Virus record (IMG/VR): IMGVR_UViG_3300030376_006394
Location: 21,212-85,211 of that record
DNA length: 64,000 nucleotides
Reading direction: 5' to 3' (one strand)
From: a virus
Lineage: Duplodnaviria; Caudoviricetes
The notes below the pieces were generated by a model, which had not been told where the DNA came from, ran no database searches, and saw only the letters and a program-made list of their open reading frames with translations. Made by a program: the position numbers and the translations under genes. The number at the start of each line of letters is the position of its first letter. Position 1 is the stretch's first letter. Positions 2,114 through 49,963 of the stretch are shown piece after piece.

Positions 2114-2224
2114 CAACTCAGATTCTTTGATGTATCCCTTATATTCCTCTACTAATTGTGGTTCAGCTTCTTTGGCGAAAATATTTTGCTTACCGTATTC
2201 AGTAGTGACAGAAGAATTAGTCAT
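2027..2224 (-). CDS. hli: High-light-inducible protein
   Basis: ELLNGRLAMIGFVAGVGAYITTGQIIPGIF, with the AKE-P N-terminal region typical of multicopy hli. Confidence 0.95.
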   Translation of the reverse strand: MTNSSVTTEYGKQNIFAKEAEPQLVEEYKGYIKESELLNGRLAMIGFVAGVGAYITTGQIIPGIF

Positions 2225-2331
2225 TAGAAAATTCCTGGGATGATTTGACCAGTCGTTGCGTATGCACCGAATGCTGCGACGATGCCAAGCATTGCCATCC
2301 AGCCATTAAACTTTTCTGCTTCAGGTGTCAT
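2224..2331 (-). CDS. hli: High-light-inducible protein, 35 aa (not in ORF track)
   Basis: Manual translation MTPEAEKFNGWMAMLGIVAAFGAYATTGQIIPGIF*; TAATG coupling to the next hli. Confidence 0.95.
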   Translation of the reverse strand: MTPEAEKFNGWMAMLGIVAAFGAYATTGQIIPGIF

Positions 2332-2595: not shown

Positions 2596-2976
2596 CTAAG
2601 CATTTGGTTCTGATTGAGCCTCCTGATTAAGAACATCAGCAGTAATTTTTAAAGAATGCTGCGTAAGTTCAGGAATTAAATTTCCTTCGGCTAGCTCGTA
2701 CAGAACTCCGATCATGAAACAATAGTGATGAGTCTTCAATTGTTTCGTTACTTGATCCCGGAAAAATTCAATCGTTATAATTGGCTTCCCTATGAAAATA
2801 CTTTTAATCCTGGGCAACCATTCTTGAGGTATCATGTGGAACTTGTTATCTCTTATTAATTCTTGCCATAGATCTTCTCTTGACATTACTTCTGATCTTG
2901 CAATCTTTCTAAATTGATCAGAAATTAAATCTTGATACTTTTTTGCGTCCTCAAGAGTTATTTGACATCTGTTCAT
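2596..2976 (-). CDS. Hypothetical protein
   Basis: 126-aa ORF translationally coupled to the repressor-like gene. Confidence 0.7.
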   Translation of the reverse strand: MNRCQITLEDAKKYQDLISDQFRKIARSEVMSREDLWQELIRDNKFHMIPQEWLPRIKSIFIGKPIITIEFFRDQVTKQLKTHHYCFMIGVLYELAEGNLIPELTQHSLKITADVLNQEAQSEPNA

Positions 2977-3755
2977 TATGCAAACTTTGTCAATTCAAAT
3001 GTTTTATTTTCTTTAGTAGCTAATTGAGCAATATATAGTTCTGCGTTATGAACCAATTCAGCATACTCTTCTTTCAGAGGTAGATTACTCATTGTCCTAA
3101 ACGCTGTCATTACTGGGCATCTTCCGTATGTAAATGCGATCTCTTTCATGGCCTCTAGAGTAAAAACCTCTTCTCCAACAAAGACATCAAGTATTCCATT
3201 CAAATGTTCTTCTTTAATAAGTTCACTCATCCCTTGTTTTAAAAATAACTGCCACGCATCTTTTGCATTTAACACTTCAGCTCTTTGTATATCTTTAAAA
3301 TGTTTAGCCGCGAATTCACCTATTTTCTTGAACTCTTCTGGGGTTGGTTTCTTAACCTCTGGAGTTTTAGCAGGACGGAACAGAGTCTTCTGATTGTTTA
3401 CTGACTGACTCTCTGATAATGCAGTTAAAATCTTTGATAGATCTTCTGCTCCAGATTCACTTTTAATCCAAGAAGACACAACATCAATATCTACTTGATC
3501 GCCATAATGTCCAGTATCAAAATAGTTATAAAGACTTTCAGTCGTGACACCTAACTGAGCAGCTAAACCTCTCGTAATTCTTGTCTTAACGTCGAATGGA
3601 TCGACCATTTCTCTACGATATTTGTTCAGGGTTCCAATCGTAATATCAAGTCTTGTGCAAAGAGTTCGTTGAGAGCATTTGCCAACTGCTAAAGCTTGAT
3701 TAATAGCTCGAACAAATAACTTTTTACGTTCACTAACTGATAGAGAATTTGTCAT
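2976..3755 (-). CDS. XRE-family HTH protein, putative phage repressor
   Basis: N-terminal HTH pattern SQRTLCTRLDITIGTLNKYRRE...ITRGLAAQLGVTTESL; transcribed divergently from the primase gene. Confidence 0.7.
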   Translation of the reverse strand: MTNSLSVSERKKLFVRAINQALAVGKCSQRTLCTRLDITIGTLNKYRREMVDPFDVKTRITRGLAAQLGVTTESLYNYFDTGHYGDQVDIDVVSSWIKSESGAEDLSKILTALSESQSVNNQKTLFRPAKTPEVKKPTPEEFKKIGEFAAKHFKDIQRAEVLNAKDAWQLFLKQGMSELIKEEHLNGILDVFVGEEVFTLEAMKEIAFTYGRCPVMTAFRTMSNLPLKEEYAELVHNAELYIAQLATKENKTFELTKFA

Positions 3756-9298: not shown

Positions 9299-10084
9299 AT
9301 GTCGTTTAGTAGGGATAATGAGGCTTTCCTTAGATCTCAGGGATGGTCTGGTACTCGATGGGATAAGCCAAGAGATAGTAGTTTTACCGAAAAAGATCAA
9401 TTTATTTATGACTCTTTGTTGAAAGCAGCGGGGGGTGATAACCAACTATCTACAGAAGAGTATGAAACTATTTACAACAACAGAGGTCCGTGGGGAAAGT
9501 ATGCGTACAACACTGATTCTGTCGCTAAAGCACTAGCCCAACTTGGATCTCAGACGGGAATTAAGCTAGACCAAGAGACAATGGACAGGCATGATCTGAC
9601 CTACAGCGGTGACGATATTCTTCAGCGAGTTGAAGGCGGTGATCGTGGTCCTGATGCTTTCAAGAAAGATGACTTTAAAGTGAGTTGGGAAAGAGGAATT
9701 GAAGATGGCGATGACTATTCCAATGTTTTTAGATGGAGTAGTAATGTTCAAAAGAAAGAAGACGAAGACCCAGTAATACCTGACGAACCAAAGCCTGATT
9801 GTCCTGACGGTCAAGTGCGAGGTGTCTCTGGTAAATGCATTGAAGATAAAGAATACGCTGATAATCCCTGGGAAGAACCAAAGAAAATACCAAAGGGATT
9901 GAAAGATAAACGTGACGACTGGGATGCTAACTGGGATCCCACAAGATACGTCAGTGATCCAAGCGAATTAGGAAGTATTCCATACATTGCTCCTTCTCAA
10001 GCTGCATTAGATGAAGATGATTACTCATCTAAAGCAGTGGAGGCGTTGATGCGTTCCGCTGATTTTAAAGGTAGATATATCTAA
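9299..10084 (+). CDS. Hypothetical acidic protein with one Cys-pair motif
   Basis: 261-aa ORF; CPDGQVRGVSGKC resembles the Cys-pair repeats in 37614-39095. Confidence 0.75.
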   Translation: MSFSRDNEAFLRSQGWSGTRWDKPRDSSFTEKDQFIYDSLLKAAGGDNQLSTEEYETIYNNRGPWGKYAYNTDSVAKALAQLGSQTGIKLDQETMDRHDLTYSGDDILQRVEGGDRGPDAFKKDDFKVSWERGIEDGDDYSNVFRWSSNVQKKEDEDPVIPDEPKPDCPDGQVRGVSGKCIEDKEYADNPWEEPKKIPKGLKDKRDDWDANWDPTRYVSDPSELGSIPYIAPSQAALDEDDYSSKAVEALMRSADFKGRYI

Positions 10085-15355: not shown

Positions 15356-15679
15356 CTAATCTTCTTTATCTAAGACGATTGACTCCATGTCTAACTCTTC
15401 GAAGCTGTTCGCCTCGAAAATATCTTGTATCTGCTCATCCTCTTCGTCTAAGACATAAGAATCTGAGTCGTCTTCATGGGGAATAAAAGCTCCACCTTCG
15501 TTGAATTTAAAGACAAATCCAGCCGCTTTGCTAGATGCAAGAAAGATTTGCTTCTGCCTGAACTTGTCCTCCCAGCACCCTAACAATTCTTCGATAAGCT
15601 GATCCCTCGACATGTCCCTGCTCTCTATCGCAATCCTGTGAAGCATGAACTTCTGTTCTTGAGTTAGATCTGGAATCAT
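15356..15679 (-). CDS. nblA: NblA-like phycobiliprotein degradation adaptor with acidic tail
   Basis: LTQEQKFMLHRIAIESRDMSRDQLIEELL fits the NblA pattern LSLEQQF...MSREQ; GGAG lies 9 nt before the ATG at 15679. Confidence 0.65.
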   Translation of the reverse strand: MIPDLTQEQKFMLHRIAIESRDMSRDQLIEELLGCWEDKFRQKQIFLASSKAAGFVFKFNEGGAFIPHEDDSDSYVLDEEDEQIQDIFEANSFEELDMESIVLDKED

Positions 15680-16061
15680 TGGCTTTAGCTCCTGATAAAC
15701 ACCATAGATCAAATAGATCTTGATTTGCAGGTGTAATCCATGTTTTTATTCTGGCGGCTCTCTCAGGCGTAAAGAACGATTGTTCTTCATACCAAGCCAA
15801 CCAATCACGAGACGATCCTTTCGCCTGATTACAGGGGTGACAAGCTGGTACAAGGTTCGTACGAAAGCTATCTCCCCCAAATGCTTTTGGTTTTACATGA
15901 TCAATAGTTAAGTGAATCTTAACGCCTTCTTTGTGTGTAGTGCCGCAGTATGCACAACAACCCCATTCGTCTTTAATTGATTGTCTGAATCTCCGCAAAG
16001 CATTGCCTTTTGAGATTTCAACTAAACCGAATCGGTAGTTTTCCCAGTGTTCTGGTATCAA
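15531..16061 (-). CDS. HNH endonuclease
   Basis: CAYCG...TIDHVKP..GG...NLVPACHPCNQAKG intact. Confidence 0.9.
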   Translation of the reverse strand: MIPEHWENYRFGLVEISKGNALRRFRQSIKDEWGCCAYCGTTHKEGVKIHLTIDHVKPKAFGGDSFRTNLVPACHPCNQAKGSSRDWLAWYEEQSFFTPERAARIKTWITPANQDLFDLWCLSGAKANDSRSNSRTEVHASQDCDREQGHVEGSAYRRIVRVLGGQVQAEANLSCI

Positions 16062-19675: not shown

Positions 19676-19897
19676 GTGATGGCTGAACCTTGGGTTAGTT
19701 CAAATACATGTATCGAACACCTTGGTGTTTCCAGGGATACTTTTTACAGTGCATGGAAACCTATATGGAGAGAAGGAACTCATTTTCGTTATAAGAATCC
19801 ATTGAAACCAAGAGTCAAAGTTTGGAAGTTAAGTGAAGTCGAGAAAACAGCTAAAGAAAGTTCAAGAGTCCTAGCAAGAAGGGCTGGCAAGAAATAA
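19676..19897 (+). CDS. Excisionase / recombination directionality factor-like protein
   Basis: Small basic winged HTH WVSSNTCIEHLGVSRDTFY...EGTHFR, convergent on the integrase. Confidence 0.7.
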   Translation: MMAEPWVSSNTCIEHLGVSRDTFYSAWKPIWREGTHFRYKNPLKPRVKVWKLSEVEKTAKESSRVLARRAGKK

Positions 19898-20103
19898 TGA
19901 CCAGTTCTTACTTTCCTGATCATCAAAAAGACTTTCAATTTTCTAAATCAGGAATCCCTCTCCACATGCTTGACGACATTCAATACCAAGAATTCGCGAT
20001 GGAGTTTCCAAATGAAATTAAAAAACCAATAATTTATTCATCTGTTCAAGAATTTTTTTACTCGACTATTCCTAGTAAAGACGATCCAGAGGCTCACTAT
20101 TAA
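19897..20103 (+). CDS. Hypothetical protein
   Basis: 68 aa, TAATG-coupled to the Xis-like gene. Confidence 0.5.
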   Translation: MTSSYFPDHQKDFQFSKSGIPLHMLDDIQYQEFAMEFPNEIKKPIIYSSVQEFFYSTIPSKDDPEAHY

Positions 20104-21413
20104 GCAACTTTTAAATCAGGAATATAAATACTGTCTATTTCGTTATCCATTAATTTTCTCTGATCAATCCATCTTTGATAAATATTGGTATGAGTAACCA
20201 CATCGTGACCCATTGCTTTTGCACATTTTTCAACTGAAACATCACAGTTAGGCAGCGTTGCCATCGTGACGGCCCATGTATGGCGTAGGTCATATGGAAC
20301 AGCAGCTTGTTGCATTGATGTTTTCGTTCCTCTTTTGCTTGGAATATAACCACGTAATTCAGGCATTTTCCTGATGCCTTTCTTGTACCAGCCAAGTGAA
20401 TGTTGAGTAATAAATCTCCCCAGGTCCGAGTTGTTTTCTGTTTGCCATTTTCTGGTCATATCCAATAAGTGTGGATCTTCAACTTGAGTTGTGATGGATT
20501 TATTCTCACGATCAACAATGAGCGGCCTTTTTGACTTCCTTAAAAATGACTGATACTTATCAAAGTTTTTAAATAAATTAAATTCTTCAATCCAATGCTT
20601 AAAGACAGGCCACACAACATGATCTTCTTTGGATTTGGTTAATCGACCTGGGATATAAAGCCAATTCTTACGATCTTTACAAACAAACCAAAGCTCATGA
20701 GGTCTTAATCCGTAGCACATGATCATTGCAAGTGCCCAACATTGCCAACCATATTCTTCTTGATTTGCGTGGAAATATTCTTCAGCGACTGTCATCTCTA
20801 CAATCGCTCTAATCTTTGCTCCTTCAGTTCTCTGGTCTCCTTTCTTTTTGCTTGTAACGATGTAATTATGATGCGCCCTATGTTTTTGAATTTCTACAGG
20901 CGGCAGCCATGCTGGATATTCACCTGTCTGCTCAAGAAAATAAAGTTGAATTTGCCTAAGACTATCAATTCTATGGATAAAAGATTTATTTCCAGGTTGT
21001 TTTTCATATAGCCATTCTTTTACATTAACCCACCTAAATTTAACGTTATTATTTCTCAAACTCCTTAATTGTGAGAAGTGATTCTTATTAGTTGTACCCT
21101 TATTTTTGGCTTTCAGAAATTCGATAATTTGATCAAAATGCTGGTCCCAAGAATTCTTCTTTATCTGCTTTACTTGTATATCAAACTCCCATTCATCATC
21201 ACCAGTCTTTTTGATTTTCTCCCAGACTAATTCACAATGAGTAGCTACATCTTTACGGTACGGATGCAGTGAAATCCTTTTTTGAGCGGTCACGCAAAAA
21301 CTATCAAGTATATAAATAGCGTTTTTATCTGACCGATGAACCAACCTCCATCTCAGATGAGGGAAATTTCTTTGCCTTTCGATGTATTCCTTTAAATAAT
21401 TTTTTCTTAACAT
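20100..21413 (-). CDS. int: Tyrosine recombinase / phage integrase
   Basis: GLRPHE (R), TKS (K), YDLRH (R), MGH and IYQRW (catalytic Y); likely ATG at 21413; next to a tRNA-derived att core. Confidence 0.92.
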   Translation of the reverse strand: MLRKNYLKEYIERQRNFPHLRWRLVHRSDKNAIYILDSFCVTAQKRISLHPYRKDVATHCELVWEKIKKTGDDEWEFDIQVKQIKKNSWDQHFDQIIEFLKAKNKGTTNKNHFSQLRSLRNNNVKFRWVNVKEWLYEKQPGNKSFIHRIDSLRQIQLYFLEQTGEYPAWLPPVEIQKHRAHHNYIVTSKKKGDQRTEGAKIRAIVEMTVAEEYFHANQEEYGWQCWALAMIMCYGLRPHELWFVCKDRKNWLYIPGRLTKSKEDHVVWPVFKHWIEEFNLFKNFDKYQSFLRKSKRPLIVDRENKSITTQVEDPHLLDMTRKWQTENNSDLGRFITQHSLGWYKKGIRKMPELRGYIPSKRGTKTSMQQAAVPYDLRHTWAVTMATLPNCDVSVEKCAKAMGHDVVTHTNIYQRWIDQRKLMDNEIDSIYIPDLKVA

Positions 21414-21516
21414 TTCATTCCCCCTCCCAATTCGTAACCCCGCACGGGGAATGAAAGGGGAATGAAAAGGGGAATATTCCCCCAAAAAAGGTTAAAAAGG
21501 GGAATGGAAATCCGTC

Positions 21517-21543
21517 CAAAATCGGACAAAATCGATCAAAATC
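21517..21543. repeat. Three CAAAATC repeats at exact 10-bp spacing, candidate Xis sites
   Basis: Copies at 21517, 21527 and 21537, between the int-side arm repeats and the core. Confidence 0.55.
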
Positions 21544-21591
21544 TACCAACATAAACGACCTCTTTTATCCCTGAGATCCCTTTATAGCACT

Positions 21592-21619
21592 AAAAAAGCC
21601 CAGTGGCTACCTGGGCTTT
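21592..21619 (-). terminator. Rho-independent terminator just downstream of the tRNA half
   Basis: AAAGCCCAG/CTGGGCTTT stem, 7-nt loop, U-tract on the minus strand. Confidence 0.85.
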
Positions 21620-21627
21620 AGAAAAAA

Positions 21628-21670
21628 TGGCGGGGGCAAGATTTGAACTTGCGACCTTCGGGTTATGAGC
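21628..21670 (-). other. attP core: 3' half of initiator tRNA-Met(CAT), 43 bp
   Basis: Minus strand GCTCATAACCCGAAGGTC-GCAAG-TTCAAAT-CTTGC-CCCCGCC-A contains the CAT anticodon loop, T-arm and fMet-type acceptor 3' strand; no D-arm or 5' half upstream. Confidence 0.9.
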
Positions 21671-21777
21671 ACATGCAACTTCTGGCAAAGCTGTTGGTAT
21701 AACTGGTCTGCGATACATGAGGGGAATGAGCAAAAGGGGAATGGTCGAAGGTCGGGTTCGTGCCCGAAGAGCTTTTA

Positions 21778-42583: not shown

Positions 42584-43732
42584 TCAATATACGAATGAGT
42601 AAGCAACAGTTATGAAGTCCTTATTAAGGATTTCAAAACCAGCAAAAAGTGACCAAATCATAATGATGAAGCGTGAAAAATCATCATTATTATTTAATAA
42701 GATTTGGGCATTATTGCCACCAATTCCGACACCAACTGCCTGTGGTCCAAAGAATAACATTGGAGCAATATTGTAATTAGCAGCACCAGCATTTGCTGCG
42801 TCTACTGCAATATTTGCATTGATAGTCTTTTCAGGTAAGTTGGTTGACTCGAACCATCTGACTCCCTCGAACAGGAAGCCTGTCGGCATGACAGGTTGTC
42901 CAGCTACGAAACCAGCTTGGCCGTAGGCTGGGCCCATGCCCTGGAAGAAGTTAGCGTTAGGAGCCTGCTCTGGAGACATAGGATTGACCATCCCATTGCC
43001 TGCATATCGTGCGATCTCTCTGAACGCGTCGTTCTGCCTCAGATGCATCATGGCGGTCGGATCCGCTATACATCTGTAGTAGCCGTCTGAGAAAGTTGGT
43101 ACATTTCTCTTACGCATGTCTTTGACAACCTGAAGAAGGTCTGTCTTGACATCGAACTTAGCTGAAACGTTAGCTCCGTAGGTGAAGACTGGGTTTCCTG
43201 CTGCTTTAGCACTTCCACCTGGGAAGTAGTATCCACCCTGTGCATCGGATGAATTACCATTCGCTTCAGCTTTAAATAGCTCGTCTGCGAATACTCTATC
43301 TCTCCAACGTCTGTAGTCGTCCAAGAGAGTCAGACTACCAATTGACTGGTGAAAAACGTTGAGATTACCAGTATCTAGGAGTAGGCGTTGTGCAGTTAAC
43401 AATGTTTCACGAGCAACCTTAAAGGTTGAAGGTGAAGTTGCATCTGTTGGATCTGCTGGACCTGTGTACTCCTTAAGGTTCACTAGAACCTTGTCTTTAA
43501 CAATATTTCTGCTAGATGCCGTTCCGAGTGTTTGATCCGCTGTACGCTCTCTGGAATCCTTATTACCAGGATTTCCCCAGAACCTATAACGGTCGAGCTG
43601 CACGGTCTGTCCAGGTTGCTTGGAAAAATCGTGTACCACTACTGGTTCGACTGCCATCTCGATGATATATCCAGGATGGGGTCGATATAGTTCGGCTCCT
43701 AACAGTTTTGGAAAATCATTATCAATCCACAT
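42584..43732 (-). CDS. Major capsid protein
   Basis: 382 aa; N4-gp56-like features (KQPGQTVQLDRY, RCIADP, G.FEGVRWFESTN, FFGPQAVG, W..FAGFEILN); followed by decoration gene and terminator. Confidence 0.85.
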   Translation of the reverse strand: MWIDNDFPKLLGAELYRPHPGYIIEMAVEPVVVHDFSKQPGQTVQLDRYRFWGNPGNKDSRERTADQTLGTASSRNIVKDKVLVNLKEYTGPADPTDATSPSTFKVARETLLTAQRLLLDTGNLNVFHQSIGSLTLLDDYRRWRDRVFADELFKAEANGNSSDAQGGYYFPGGSAKAAGNPVFTYGANVSAKFDVKTDLLQVVKDMRKRNVPTFSDGYYRCIADPTAMMHLRQNDAFREIARYAGNGMVNPMSPEQAPNANFFQGMGPAYGQAGFVAGQPVMPTGFLFEGVRWFESTNLPEKTINANIAVDAANAGAANYNIAPMLFFGPQAVGVGIGGNNAQILLNNNDDFSRFIIMIWSLFAGFEILNKDFITVAYSFVY

Positions 43733-43821
43733 TGGGATTTATAACTCCGAAACTTATAAGGAACAAGACACACCTAATGTGTGTTGTCTATATCATAAAT
43801 ACATCTCATAGGGTAAAACTA

Positions 43822-44514
43822 TTGGAGGCTACCGACGTTCGCGGAATCCTCGGATTATTGATAGCAGATGGAAGTCTTGTCGCATATCGCACTCCTAGCG
43901 GTGGTTACATACAACTCACACTTGTAGCTGGTGCGACCGAGTCTGCTTTTCTGGAGGAAAAAGTTAAGGAATTTAATCAATTTATTTTCACAAAGGCAAA
44001 AATTGTTCCCTATAAAACAAAAGCAAGATCAAGTGGTAATTCGACCCCAATTCTTCGTTTCAGGGTTTCAACCAATAAATTGCGTCCTGTCTACAACCTT
44101 CTTTATCCAATCGGTGAAAGACAGATTACGCAAACCACTCTTGATTTATTAGGAGCTAAAGCTGCTGCATGGTTATGGGCAGAAGGCGCGAAAGTCTTAA
44201 AGGATGGCTCTTCTCTACTCTCAAGAGTTGGAAATACATTCGAAGAAACTCTAATGATTCAAAATTGGCTCCAGATGCTCGTTGGGGCAGAGGGGATGAT
44301 TGATGAAAACTACGTTCGCCCAAGAATTCAATTTGATATAGAGAATACCCAGAAAGTACAAGAAGCACTTACTAATTACGCACCCCAAAGTCGTTTACAC
44401 CTTTTCAAACAGGAGCAATGGAATGTCAGCGCAATTCGTAGTTCACGCACTGAGTTACAGTTTGGGAAAGGGGAAAATCAGTCTCAAGGGGAAAAGGCAA
44501 CGTCCTTGGCTTGA
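43822..44514 (+). CDS. LAGLIDADG-family endonuclease-like protein (two-motif type)
   Basis: ILGLLIADGSL and AAWLWAEG motifs; likely TTG start at 43822. Confidence 0.75.
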   Translation: MEATDVRGILGLLIADGSLVAYRTPSGGYIQLTLVAGATESAFLEEKVKEFNQFIFTKAKIVPYKTKARSSGNSTPILRFRVSTNKLRPVYNLLYPIGERQITQTTLDLLGAKAAAWLWAEGAKVLKDGSSLLSRVGNTFEETLMIQNWLQMLVGAEGMIDENYVRPRIQFDIENTQKVQEALTNYAPQSRLHLFKQEQWNVSAIRSSRTELQFGKGENQSQGEKATSLA

Positions 44515-45013
44515 AATTTCCAGAAGTGAAATTGATCGTACTTATTTAGACCACCAACTAAGAACTCTTAGATATTCTCACGACGGACCAGTCGATTATT
44601 TCTGGGATCGGATTGCAACAGATGGCTTCTACGACAAAGAACGTTTCAGATTCCAAGGAGATCTGCTTTGGAGGGCTTATGAATTGCTTTATCCAAGAGA
44701 TTTATTTTCAATCAACAGAGAAGTCCTCAATATTGCTGGATTAAAAGGAGCTACTGCTCTTTGGATTGATCAAGGCAGGATTACTGGTAAGAAAGGGTCT
44801 ATTAGAGGTCGATATTCCGAGAATGATTATTTAGAACTGGAATCATGGTTTAACGATCTGAGTATCCCTGCGAAAATCCATCGAAACAATATGAGTGTTG
44901 TTCAACTAAGTTTCAAGAAAGATTCTCTGATTGCATTGCTTGAATTAATCAAACCTTTCGTACATATCAATATGAAGAAGACATTGAAGCAACAGTTTTC
45001 AAAATTCAGGTAG
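44423..45013 (+). CDS. Second LAGLIDADG-like protein, acidic catalytic residues lost
   Basis: YSLGKGKI (D to K) and LWIDQG; AYELLYP and LIKPFVH..MK match the same fold. Confidence 0.7.
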   Translation: MSAQFVVHALSYSLGKGKISLKGKRQRPWLEISRSEIDRTYLDHQLRTLRYSHDGPVDYFWDRIATDGFYDKERFRFQGDLLWRAYELLYPRDLFSINREVLNIAGLKGATALWIDQGRITGKKGSIRGRYSENDYLELESWFNDLSIPAKIHRNNMSVVQLSFKKDSLIALLELIKPFVHINMKKTLKQQFSKFR

Positions 45014-45177: not shown

Positions 45178-45306
45178 ATGTCTATGAGTGACTCTCTTGA
45201 CCAAGACGACCTTGACTCACCAACGATTTCCCCTCAACGTAGACGGTACTTAGAGTATTGCGAAGAGAACCCGTCAGATGAGGAATGTCGGTTATATGAG
45301 TGCTAA
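45178..45306 (+). CDS. cp12: Mini CP12-like protein, 42 aa (not in ORF track)
   Basis: MSMSDSLDQDDLDSPTISPQRRRYLEYCEENPSDEECRLYEC*; EYCEENPxxxECRxY is the CP12 C-terminal loop. Confidence 0.75.
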   Translation: MSMSDSLDQDDLDSPTISPQRRRYLEYCEENPSDEECRLYEC

Positions 45307-48877: not shown

Positions 48878-49963
48878 TTAGCCAATTGAAGGTGCAAGTA
48901 GAGCTACTTCACTAGTTGCTGTAGAAGCAAGATCTAGAGGGAAGTTATGAGCGTTACGCTCATGCATCACTTCCATTCCGAGGTTAGCGCGATTTAAAAC
49001 GTCTCCCCAAGTAGGAATGACTTTACCTTTATAGTCTACGACAGACTGATTAAAGTTGAATCCATTTAGATTAAAAGCCATTGTGCAAATCCCCATACTT
49101 GTAAGCCAAATACAGATAACAGGCCAGCTAGCAAGGAAAAAATGCAAACTTCTTGAGTTATTAAACGACGCATACTGGAAGATTAATCTTCCGAAGTAGC
49201 CATGTGCAGCCACGATGTTATAGGTCTCTTCTTCTTGTCCGAATTTATATCCATAGTTCTGAGAAGTCAGACCTGTGGTTTCACGAATAAGTGAAGATGT
49301 AACCAGTGAGCCATGCATAGCACTAAACAGAGCACCACCAAACATACCCGCCACGCCTGCCATGTGGAATGGATGCATGAGGATATTATGTTCCGCCTGG
49401 AAGACAAACATAAAGTTGAACGTGCCTGAAATGCCGAGAGGCATACCGTCACTGAATGATCCTTGTCCGAAAGGATAGACGAGGAATACAGCAAAAGCGG
49501 CTGAGACTGGTGCGGAGTAAGCAACACAGATCCAAGGACGCATTCCTAAGCGGTACGACAGTTCCCACTGTCTTCCCATGTATGCAGATATTCCGATTAA
49601 AAAATGGAAAATAACGAGTTGGTAGGGACCGCCGTTATATAACCATTCATCTAACGTCGCCGCTTCCCATATGGGATAGAAGTGTAACCCAATTGCGTTA
49701 CTACTAGGTACAACAGCACCAGAAATAATGTTGTTGCCATACAGGAATGAGCCAGCTACTGGCTCGCGGATACCGTCAATATCGACTGGTGGTGCAGCGA
49801 TAAAAGCGATGATGAAACAAGTTGCAGCAGTTAACAAGCAAGGGATCATTAAGACTCCGAACCAGCCAACATAAATGCGATTGCTGCTTGAGGTAACCCA
49901 ATCAGTAAACTCGTCCCATCCTTTTAATAAGCCACCACCTCTAATTGAGGTTGATGTAGTCAT
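48878..49963 (-). CDS. psbA: Photosystem II D1 protein, Prochlorococcus/cyanophage type
   Basis: Full-length D1; MGRQWE (Q130), [27 protein letters not shown] intact; RETTGLTSQ loop; no intron. Confidence 0.99.

Follow-up and report, generated by a model that had tools for sequence, protein, structure and literature searches.

A probable lambda-type integration and excision module directed at the initiator tRNA in an S-EIV1-like, psbA-carrying cyanophage

Whether real prophages occur in Prochlorococcus is a long-standing question. For P-SS2, a 108-kb siphovirus of MIT9313, integration has been proposed only (Sullivan et al. 2009, PMC2784084). The lineage described by Flores-Uribe et al. (2019, 10.1101/325100), which carries a split DNA polymerase, a class II RNR and talC, has been associated with a tRNA-Pro/Arg island of Synechococcus WH8016. 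P-SSP7 and S-TIP37, which target tRNA-Leu and have attP downstream of int, were found to integrate transiently without lysogeny (PMC8776855). A rare prophage has also been noted in a Synechococcus single-cell genome.

The DNA analysed here (the window, 64,000 nucleotides) covers bases 21212-85211 of an 85,211-bp virus record, a single contig whose completeness is estimated at 100% and in which terminal repeats are absent. The phage, of about 86 kb, is an S-EIV1-like marine cyanophage. At 19679-21745 we found an intact lambda-style attP module, and we consider it very likely that this is a functional attP/int/xis integration and excision module of an S-EIV1-like, psbA-carrying cyanophage infecting low-light Prochlorococcus. 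The original prediction of a complete lysogeny module goes beyond the data, which describe a module for integration and excision without a repressor.

The phage and its gene content

The following genes outside the module are referred to below.

2027-2224 and 2224-2331, minus strand: two tandem hli genes
2976-3755, minus strand: XRE/Cro-C1-like HTH regulator, a repressor candidate, divergent from the primase gene
15356-15685, minus strand: nblA-like gene (weak Pfam match, E 0.0011, under the Pfam cut-off)
42584-43732, minus strand: major capsid protein, 70% identical to that of S-EIV1, used as lineage marker
45178-45306, plus strand: short cp12-like gene, 42 aa, C-terminal motif only
48878-49963, minus strand: psbA (D1)

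S-EIV1 is the sole annotated relative of the capsid protein, and S-EIV1 (KJ410740) also shares the terminase (53% identity), the portal (45%) and a total of 16 ORFs. Homologous capsid, portal and terminase genes in a conserved order place the phage among the S-EIV1-like phages, in which psbA is mostly limited to one portal clade. Neither DNA polymerase A (PF00476) nor RNR (PF02867) was matched in this genome of estimated 100% completeness; the BAC21E04-like lineage of Flores-Uribe et al., with its split DNA polymerase (PF00476) and class II RNR (PF02867), was ruled out on this ground. The traits of T7-like cyanophages, a T7-type DNA polymerase and a tRNA-Leu attP, were likewise not found in this genome. 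The phage encodes a VapE-like primase/helicase yet has no DNA polymerase A or RNR match, in which S-EIV1 differs.

The photosynthesis genes of the original prediction were recovered in unequal strength: psbA and both hli genes are present, cp12 is represented by 42 aa only, and the nblA match is weak. A small Cys-rich ORF in the same genome (8888-9043, outside the window) resembles a second CP12-like protein by eye and gave no match to the CP12 profile. One or more LAGLIDADG endonuclease-like ORFs were observed at 43708-45013, immediately upstream of the capsid gene and on the other strand, and in two relatives (L250 and L252) the capsid match is interrupted by an insertion.

The XRE-HTH and primase genes diverge from each other in this genome, in an integrated relative described below (L176) and in four other integrase carriers. 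It is also found in two near-complete relatives without integrase, so a role as a lysogeny-specific repressor is unsupported; profile searches of this gene gave no cI-type peptidase match.

Architecture of the integration module

The module comprises three genes and a compact attachment site.

19679-19897, plus strand: putative recombination directionality factor of Xis type (72 aa; winged-HTH, DUF1233-like), with weak excisionase matches
19897-20103, plus strand: acidic 68-aa ORF, translationally coupled to xis and converging on int
20100-21413, minus strand: tyrosine integrase, 437 aa, with an N-terminal beta-rich domain, core-binding helices and a catalytic domain
21416-21506: int-side arm-type repeats GGGGAAT, at 21417 (inverted), 21446, 21457, 21469, 21476 (inverted) and 21499
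21517-21543, plus strand: three CAAAATC direct repeats with 10-bp spacing
21578-21588, minus strand: family-conserved motif directly past the terminator, kept in S-EIV1-like att sites
21595-21619, minus strand: 9-bp hairpin and T-run, predicted intrinsic terminator for the restored tRNA; same architecture with another sequence in all relatives
21628-21670, minus strand: attP core, tRNA-fMet positions 32-74 (anticodon loop to discriminator), 43/43 match
21695-21705, no strand assigned: conserved motif of the far arm, 23-25 bp away from the core wherever an attP shows it
21721-21743, plus strand: two far-arm copies of the arm-type repeat, at 21721 and 21736

The core is identical over all 43 positions to tRNA-Met(CAT) of Prochlorococcus AG-402-G06 and AG-311-D23. 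This tRNA has the features of an initiator: its 1:72 pair is mismatched, and its anticodon stem contains three G-C pairs. As the core ends at the discriminator base, CCA is not encoded. ARAGORN and Rfam searches of the window detected no full tRNA and no RNA family, and a relaxed ARAGORN run yielded only noise. The hairpin was not picked up by a simple terminator scan; a hairpin with a T-tract nevertheless occupies this position in all relatives, with varying sequence. The predicted tRNA-fMet 3' half followed by its own terminator is therefore borne out, and so is the unintegrated state, as phage genes flank the core on both sides. Across related attP sites, the part identical to the host starts at tRNA positions 25-33 and in every case takes in the anticodon loop, which fits the anticodon-centred subsite A class.

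The integrase has an open reading frame of 437 aa. Residues R237, K260, R377, H403 and Y412 are invariant in its family, every member of which carries a tyrosine in place of the HxxR histidine (YDLRH). Pfam PF00589 was matched only weakly (E 0.002). The best PDB match of the predicted fold was lambda Int (E 8e-6, low TM), and the top Foldseek matches were lambda Int, XerA, Tn1549 Int and Cre (E about 1e-5, probability 1.0, low TM). Catalytic residues and an Int-type fold thus identify a tyrosine recombinase, as had been predicted, with the HxxR histidine replaced by tyrosine.

The Xis-like protein is matched weakly by the excisionase families DUF1233 of Pfam (E 0.0087) and PHROG 539 (E 0.028), and also by an Atlas excisionase cluster (feature match 0.94, 173 features in common; structure TM 0.66), while a PDB sequence search gave no significant match. 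These matches, though weak, are concordant, and the gene is kept beside int in S-EIV1-like relatives and in L176, in line with the original identification of an Xis-like gene. The 68-aa ORF had been overlooked. It is 60-85% identical across relatives, even where Int is just 33-39% identical, and is far better conserved than either Int or Xis. Profile searches against Pfam and PHROG gave no family match for this ORF, which is possibly a regulator of integration.

With regard to the arms, eight copies of GGGGAAT fall within about 330 bp (six on the int side, two on the far side), compared with five in the other 85 kb. In a Markov shuffle of the att flanks, 46 of 2000 sequences had a 7-mer as frequent as that observed; this test is conservative because the repeats themselves set its composition, and much stronger evidence comes from the genome-wide comparison. 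By analogy with lambda, the GGGGAAT repeats are putative Int arm sites, one of which, at 21417, covers the ribosome-binding region of int, and the CAAAATC repeats are possible Xis sites. An inverted motif related to that at 21578-21588 is present on the far arm. In related attP sites each phage has a private repeat of 7-9 bp, typically with two far-arm and two to six int-arm copies, and integrated copies retain the int-side repeats alone, as expected of attL. A host-identical core flanked on both sides by arm-type repeats to which Int would bind corresponds to the lambda type, and the conservation of xis and of the arms points to regulated excision.

These features outline how the module may work. 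Int would bind both the core and the arm repeats and recombine attP with the tRNA-fMet gene beside ansA, with the crossover most likely within the 7-nt anticodon loop. The phage would bring a new 3' half and terminator, which would restore the essential initiator tRNA, and the CCA would be added post-transcriptionally. The prophage would read ansA, tRNA-fMet, int, xis, early genes, terminase and portal, psbA, capsid, tail and attR, and Xis would drive excision.

Integrated relatives and the probable host

A single-protein search of viral contigs gave no match, and an alignment search did give matches. The module lies at one fixed position in many marine contigs. In a quick tree made without bootstrap, the integrase falls in a 32-row clade with support 100, comprising 27 half-tRNA attP sites, three attL sites behind a full host tRNA-fMet and two truncated sequences. 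The integrase is absent from S-EIV1 and from five near-complete, more distant S-EIV1-like genomes, and it is therefore dispensable across the wider lineage. The family also moves among unrelated phages. Distant integrases in larger picocyanobacterial genomes (L186-L211) adjoin tRNA-Lys, a different tRNA-Met, tRNA-Thr or tRNA-Pro; to judge from these positions, the wider family has switched tRNA targets.

The Int of this genome itself was found in the attP state only. The IMG/VR record of one relative, L176 (also G044), classed there as a provirus, starts precisely at the int ATG; its untrimmed source is contig QCLH01000002.1 (142 kb) of the Prochlorococcus assembly GCA_003214715.1. This contig reads carB, rsfS, ansA, full tRNA-Met, terminator, arm repeats, int, xis and phage genes, and the host-phage joint lies exactly at the att core, behind the full-length tRNA-fMet. 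In the phage part (56,206 bp) there are 74 ORF matches to the present genome, which follow its order in circular permutation. Among them are primase, the XRE-HTH gene, hli, nblA, the terminase (92%) and the portal (87%); the integrase is just 37% identical to ours. The S-EIV1-like lineage thus integrates. Together with the exact host match, this relative upholds the original proposal that integration with restoration of the tRNA is possible for a non-T7-like lineage. With regard to the junctions that had been predicted, attL was found in this assembly and no attR was seen for L176. The lack of an attR, the attP-only state of our Int, its low identity to that of L176, the tyrosine in its HxxR motif, the integrase-free relatives and the failure to find such a terminase in 401 picocyanobacterial genomes all count against the favoured explanation of a functional module.

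The contig ends in the gene after portal, about 2 kb short of the position of psbA. The portal of L176 lies in a clade (support 97) whose other five members all carry psbA, and its portal affiliation makes psbA likely in this provirus. The idea that photosynthesis genes could be delivered as prophage cargo goes further than the data: hli and nblA are present in the integrated relative, and psbA would lie past the contig end. A second L176 contig with psbA, tail genes and attR was sought through capsid, lysin and att-neighbour scans and was not among the matches listed.

Other integrated copies are mostly integrase-only scars. The nearest integrase (79% identity) lies behind a full tRNA-fMet in host DNA, with a decayed second core 87 bp further on and the far-arm motif correctly spaced, and further integrase scars were found at tRNA-fMet in four host genomes. 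The copy with the 79% integrase was observed in several ocean metagenomes (L125-L130 and L316; 35-1771 in L125) as a 1.7-kb scar of attL, integrase and decayed attR, in which the integrase is intact and the phage is gone. Two unrelated phages with homologous integrases are also joined to ansA-tRNA-fMet in two other assemblies (L177, GCA_003279785.1, QCGR01000004.1, and L178, GCA_003278305.1, QCFU01000005.1, joint at about 9780-10001). One is unassigned (a 42-kb IMG/VR record) and the other has a T7-like cyanophage terminase; this T7-like phage uses tRNA-Met at the ansA site, not tRNA-Leu. On the evidence of such joints, the tRNA-fMet gene beside ansA is a phage attB common to several Prochlorococcus clades. 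Two further loci (G036:C15, 31527-33398, and G009:C1, 237612-239486) show two tRNA-fMet 3' matches about 1.8 kb apart with an adjoining glycosyltransferase-like ORF, and no integrase of this family was found at either.

The exact match of the core to a picocyanobacterial tRNA-fMet, as originally predicted, was confined to one Prochlorococcus genus: among 301 genomes of the picocyanobacterial family it occurs in four, all of that low-light genus, and within the genus 7 of 32 matched genomes have the exact allele. As the core also exactly matches Acidimicrobiia tRNAs and one marine proteobacterial bin, we rejected it as a host identifier on its own, and the host assignment rests on the psbA and hli content and on the ansA-linked integrated copies. 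The best named DNA matches of psbA are phages isolated on NATL1A and NATL2A, and the ansA of L176, in host DNA of 35% GC, shares 93-97.5% identity with ansA from the genus to which AG-402-G06 and AG-311-D23 belong. The host is probably a low-light Prochlorococcus of the LLI ecotype. We infer this ecotype, as well as a single-cell origin of the L176 assembly, from the L176 host DNA, the accession series and the closeness of psbA to the NATL1A and NATL2A phages. An nblA-like gene thus occurs in a phage of a probable LLI host, and this ecotype has been reported to be without nblA (PMC12695635).

Within one Prochlorococcus genus (L398-L427), the T-stem of the initiator tRNA comes in two alleles distinguished by a compensatory pair, and both were also found in phage attP sites. 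The terminator after tRNA-fMet varies among Prochlorococcus genomes, and some of these terminators resemble those of phages. This T-stem and terminator variation suggests that the tRNA-fMet 3' half has been repeatedly replaced through integration.

Given that the case for integration leans on L176, the nature of its joint has to be considered. Whole-genome amplification creates chimeras, and a shared core may mislead assemblers, so the joint could in principle be a single-cell amplification or assembly artefact formed through the shared core of about 45 bp. We regard this as quite improbable, as the joint coincides exactly with the predicted attL and is found in three assemblies with three unrelated phages, in addition to five scars. 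It is scarcely credible that we are dealing with a passenger or relic, a tycheposon or satellite scar captured by a lytic phage and unused for its integration. In favour of this reading, tRNA-Met is a tycheposon target (10.1101/2020.12.28.424599), the module is patchy within the lineage and the integrase family moves between unrelated phages. Against it, the module has a single core and not one on each side of an element, many phages carry it at a fixed position and in the same synteny, and the entire phage arm that follows int in L176 largely refutes this reading.

Two readings of the integrated state fare better. If integration is accepted, we lean somewhat towards a state that is transient or does not last long, like that of T7-like cyanophages, and give heritable lysogeny a little less than even weight. 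The proposal that integration occurs only transiently, as a by-product of pseudolysogeny or lytic infection, with the single-cell junction recording an infected cell, appears to us evenly balanced between acceptance and rejection. Transient integration was demonstrated experimentally for S-TIP37 and P-SSP7 (PMC8776855), another assembly has a T7-like phage at this tRNA, infected cells are known from the source data set (PMC6122165), and integrase-only scars predominate among the other integrated copies. Several host genomes and metagenomes, however, have such scars behind the tRNA, which implies that some cells survived integration and divided, and the architecture of arm sites and xis is fully conserved.

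That the phage is truly temperate, with stable heritable lysogeny maintained by XRE-HTH repression and with hli, nblA and psbA acting as prophage genes, can be put forward only tentatively. This proposal refines the favoured explanation of a functional integration and excision module and does not exclude it. It would account for a prophage arm of at least 56 kb with intact-looking genes, assembled in line with host DNA; assembly through the core would also suggest that free attP copies did not predominate in the cell concerned. The presence of xis, the XRE-HTH gene divergent from primase in integrase carriers, and a phage without its own DNA polymerase and RNR are consistent with it. Against it, the XRE gene is shared with the two integrase-free relatives and its profile searches gave no cI-type peptidase match, a terminase of this type was found in none of 401 picocyanobacterial genomes, and T7-like cyanophages integrate yet form no lysogens (PMC8776855). 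A broader proposal, which we consider unlikely as a whole, is that the polymerase-less, psbA-carrying S-EIV1-like clade represents the first true temperate Prochlorococcus phages, forming heritable prophages at a tRNA-fMet/ansA site common to at least three unrelated phage types, with one core and private arm repeats, and repeatedly replacing the 3' half and terminator of the host tRNA.

In either case, a specific attB (tRNA-fMet beside ansA), a phage clade and a public assembly with at least 56 kb of integrated phage can now be named. Should integration be stable, photosynthesis genes (hli and nblA as seen, psbA as is likely) would be carried by prophages in the most abundant phototroph, and the tRNA-fMet island would gain a named driver. 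Should it be transient, integration without lysogeny would extend beyond T7-like phages.

Comparison with known systems

The mechanism is that of a standard tRNA-targeting tyrosine integrase, and both the family and target of P-SS2 and the lysogenic potential of another S-EIV1-related lineage had already been proposed. The novelty is thus lower than originally implied, given that the P-SS2 integrase is homologous and directed at the same tRNA-Met at ansA, and that integrase-bearing S-EIV1 relatives were published in 2019. A literature search found no paper on the module of the polymerase-less clade or on tRNA-fMet-integrated copies in Prochlorococcus, with many subscription papers outside the search.

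P-SS2 provides the sole annotated phage relative of the integrase (29.6% identity over residues 226-416), and shares with the present phage an att site upstream of int, the same orientation and the tRNA-Met target at ansA. The system described here differs in belonging to an S-EIV1-like phage, in its psbA and adjacent xis, and in having a relative seen integrated. The Flores-Uribe lineage resembles it in its size of about 86 kb, in being closest to S-EIV1, in carrying psbA, nblA and an integrase, and in its proposed lysogenic potential; in contrast, the present genome lacks DNA polymerase A and RNR matches, targets tRNA-fMet and points to Prochlorococcus. S-EIV1 (KJ410740) has a collinear morphogenesis block, but no match to this integrase, tRNA fragment or psbA, and it has DNA polymerase A. 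P-SSP7 and S-TIP37 have in common with it an int gene, a tRNA-derived attP and site-specific integration in picocyanobacteria, whereas their target is tRNA-Leu and they belong to another phage family. Tycheposons (10.1101/2020.12.28.424599) likewise combine an integrase and excisionase at a Prochlorococcus tRNA-Met island, but they measure about 10-20 kb and are without a full virion module, whereas a whole phage is involved here. Finally, the lambda-type subsite A integrases (Islander, PMC4383910) also carry the 3' part of a tRNA from the anticodon loop onwards, restore the gene, have arm repeats on two sides and use Xis. Relative to these, only the YDLRH motif and the phage-specific arm repeats around one shared core are mechanistically new.
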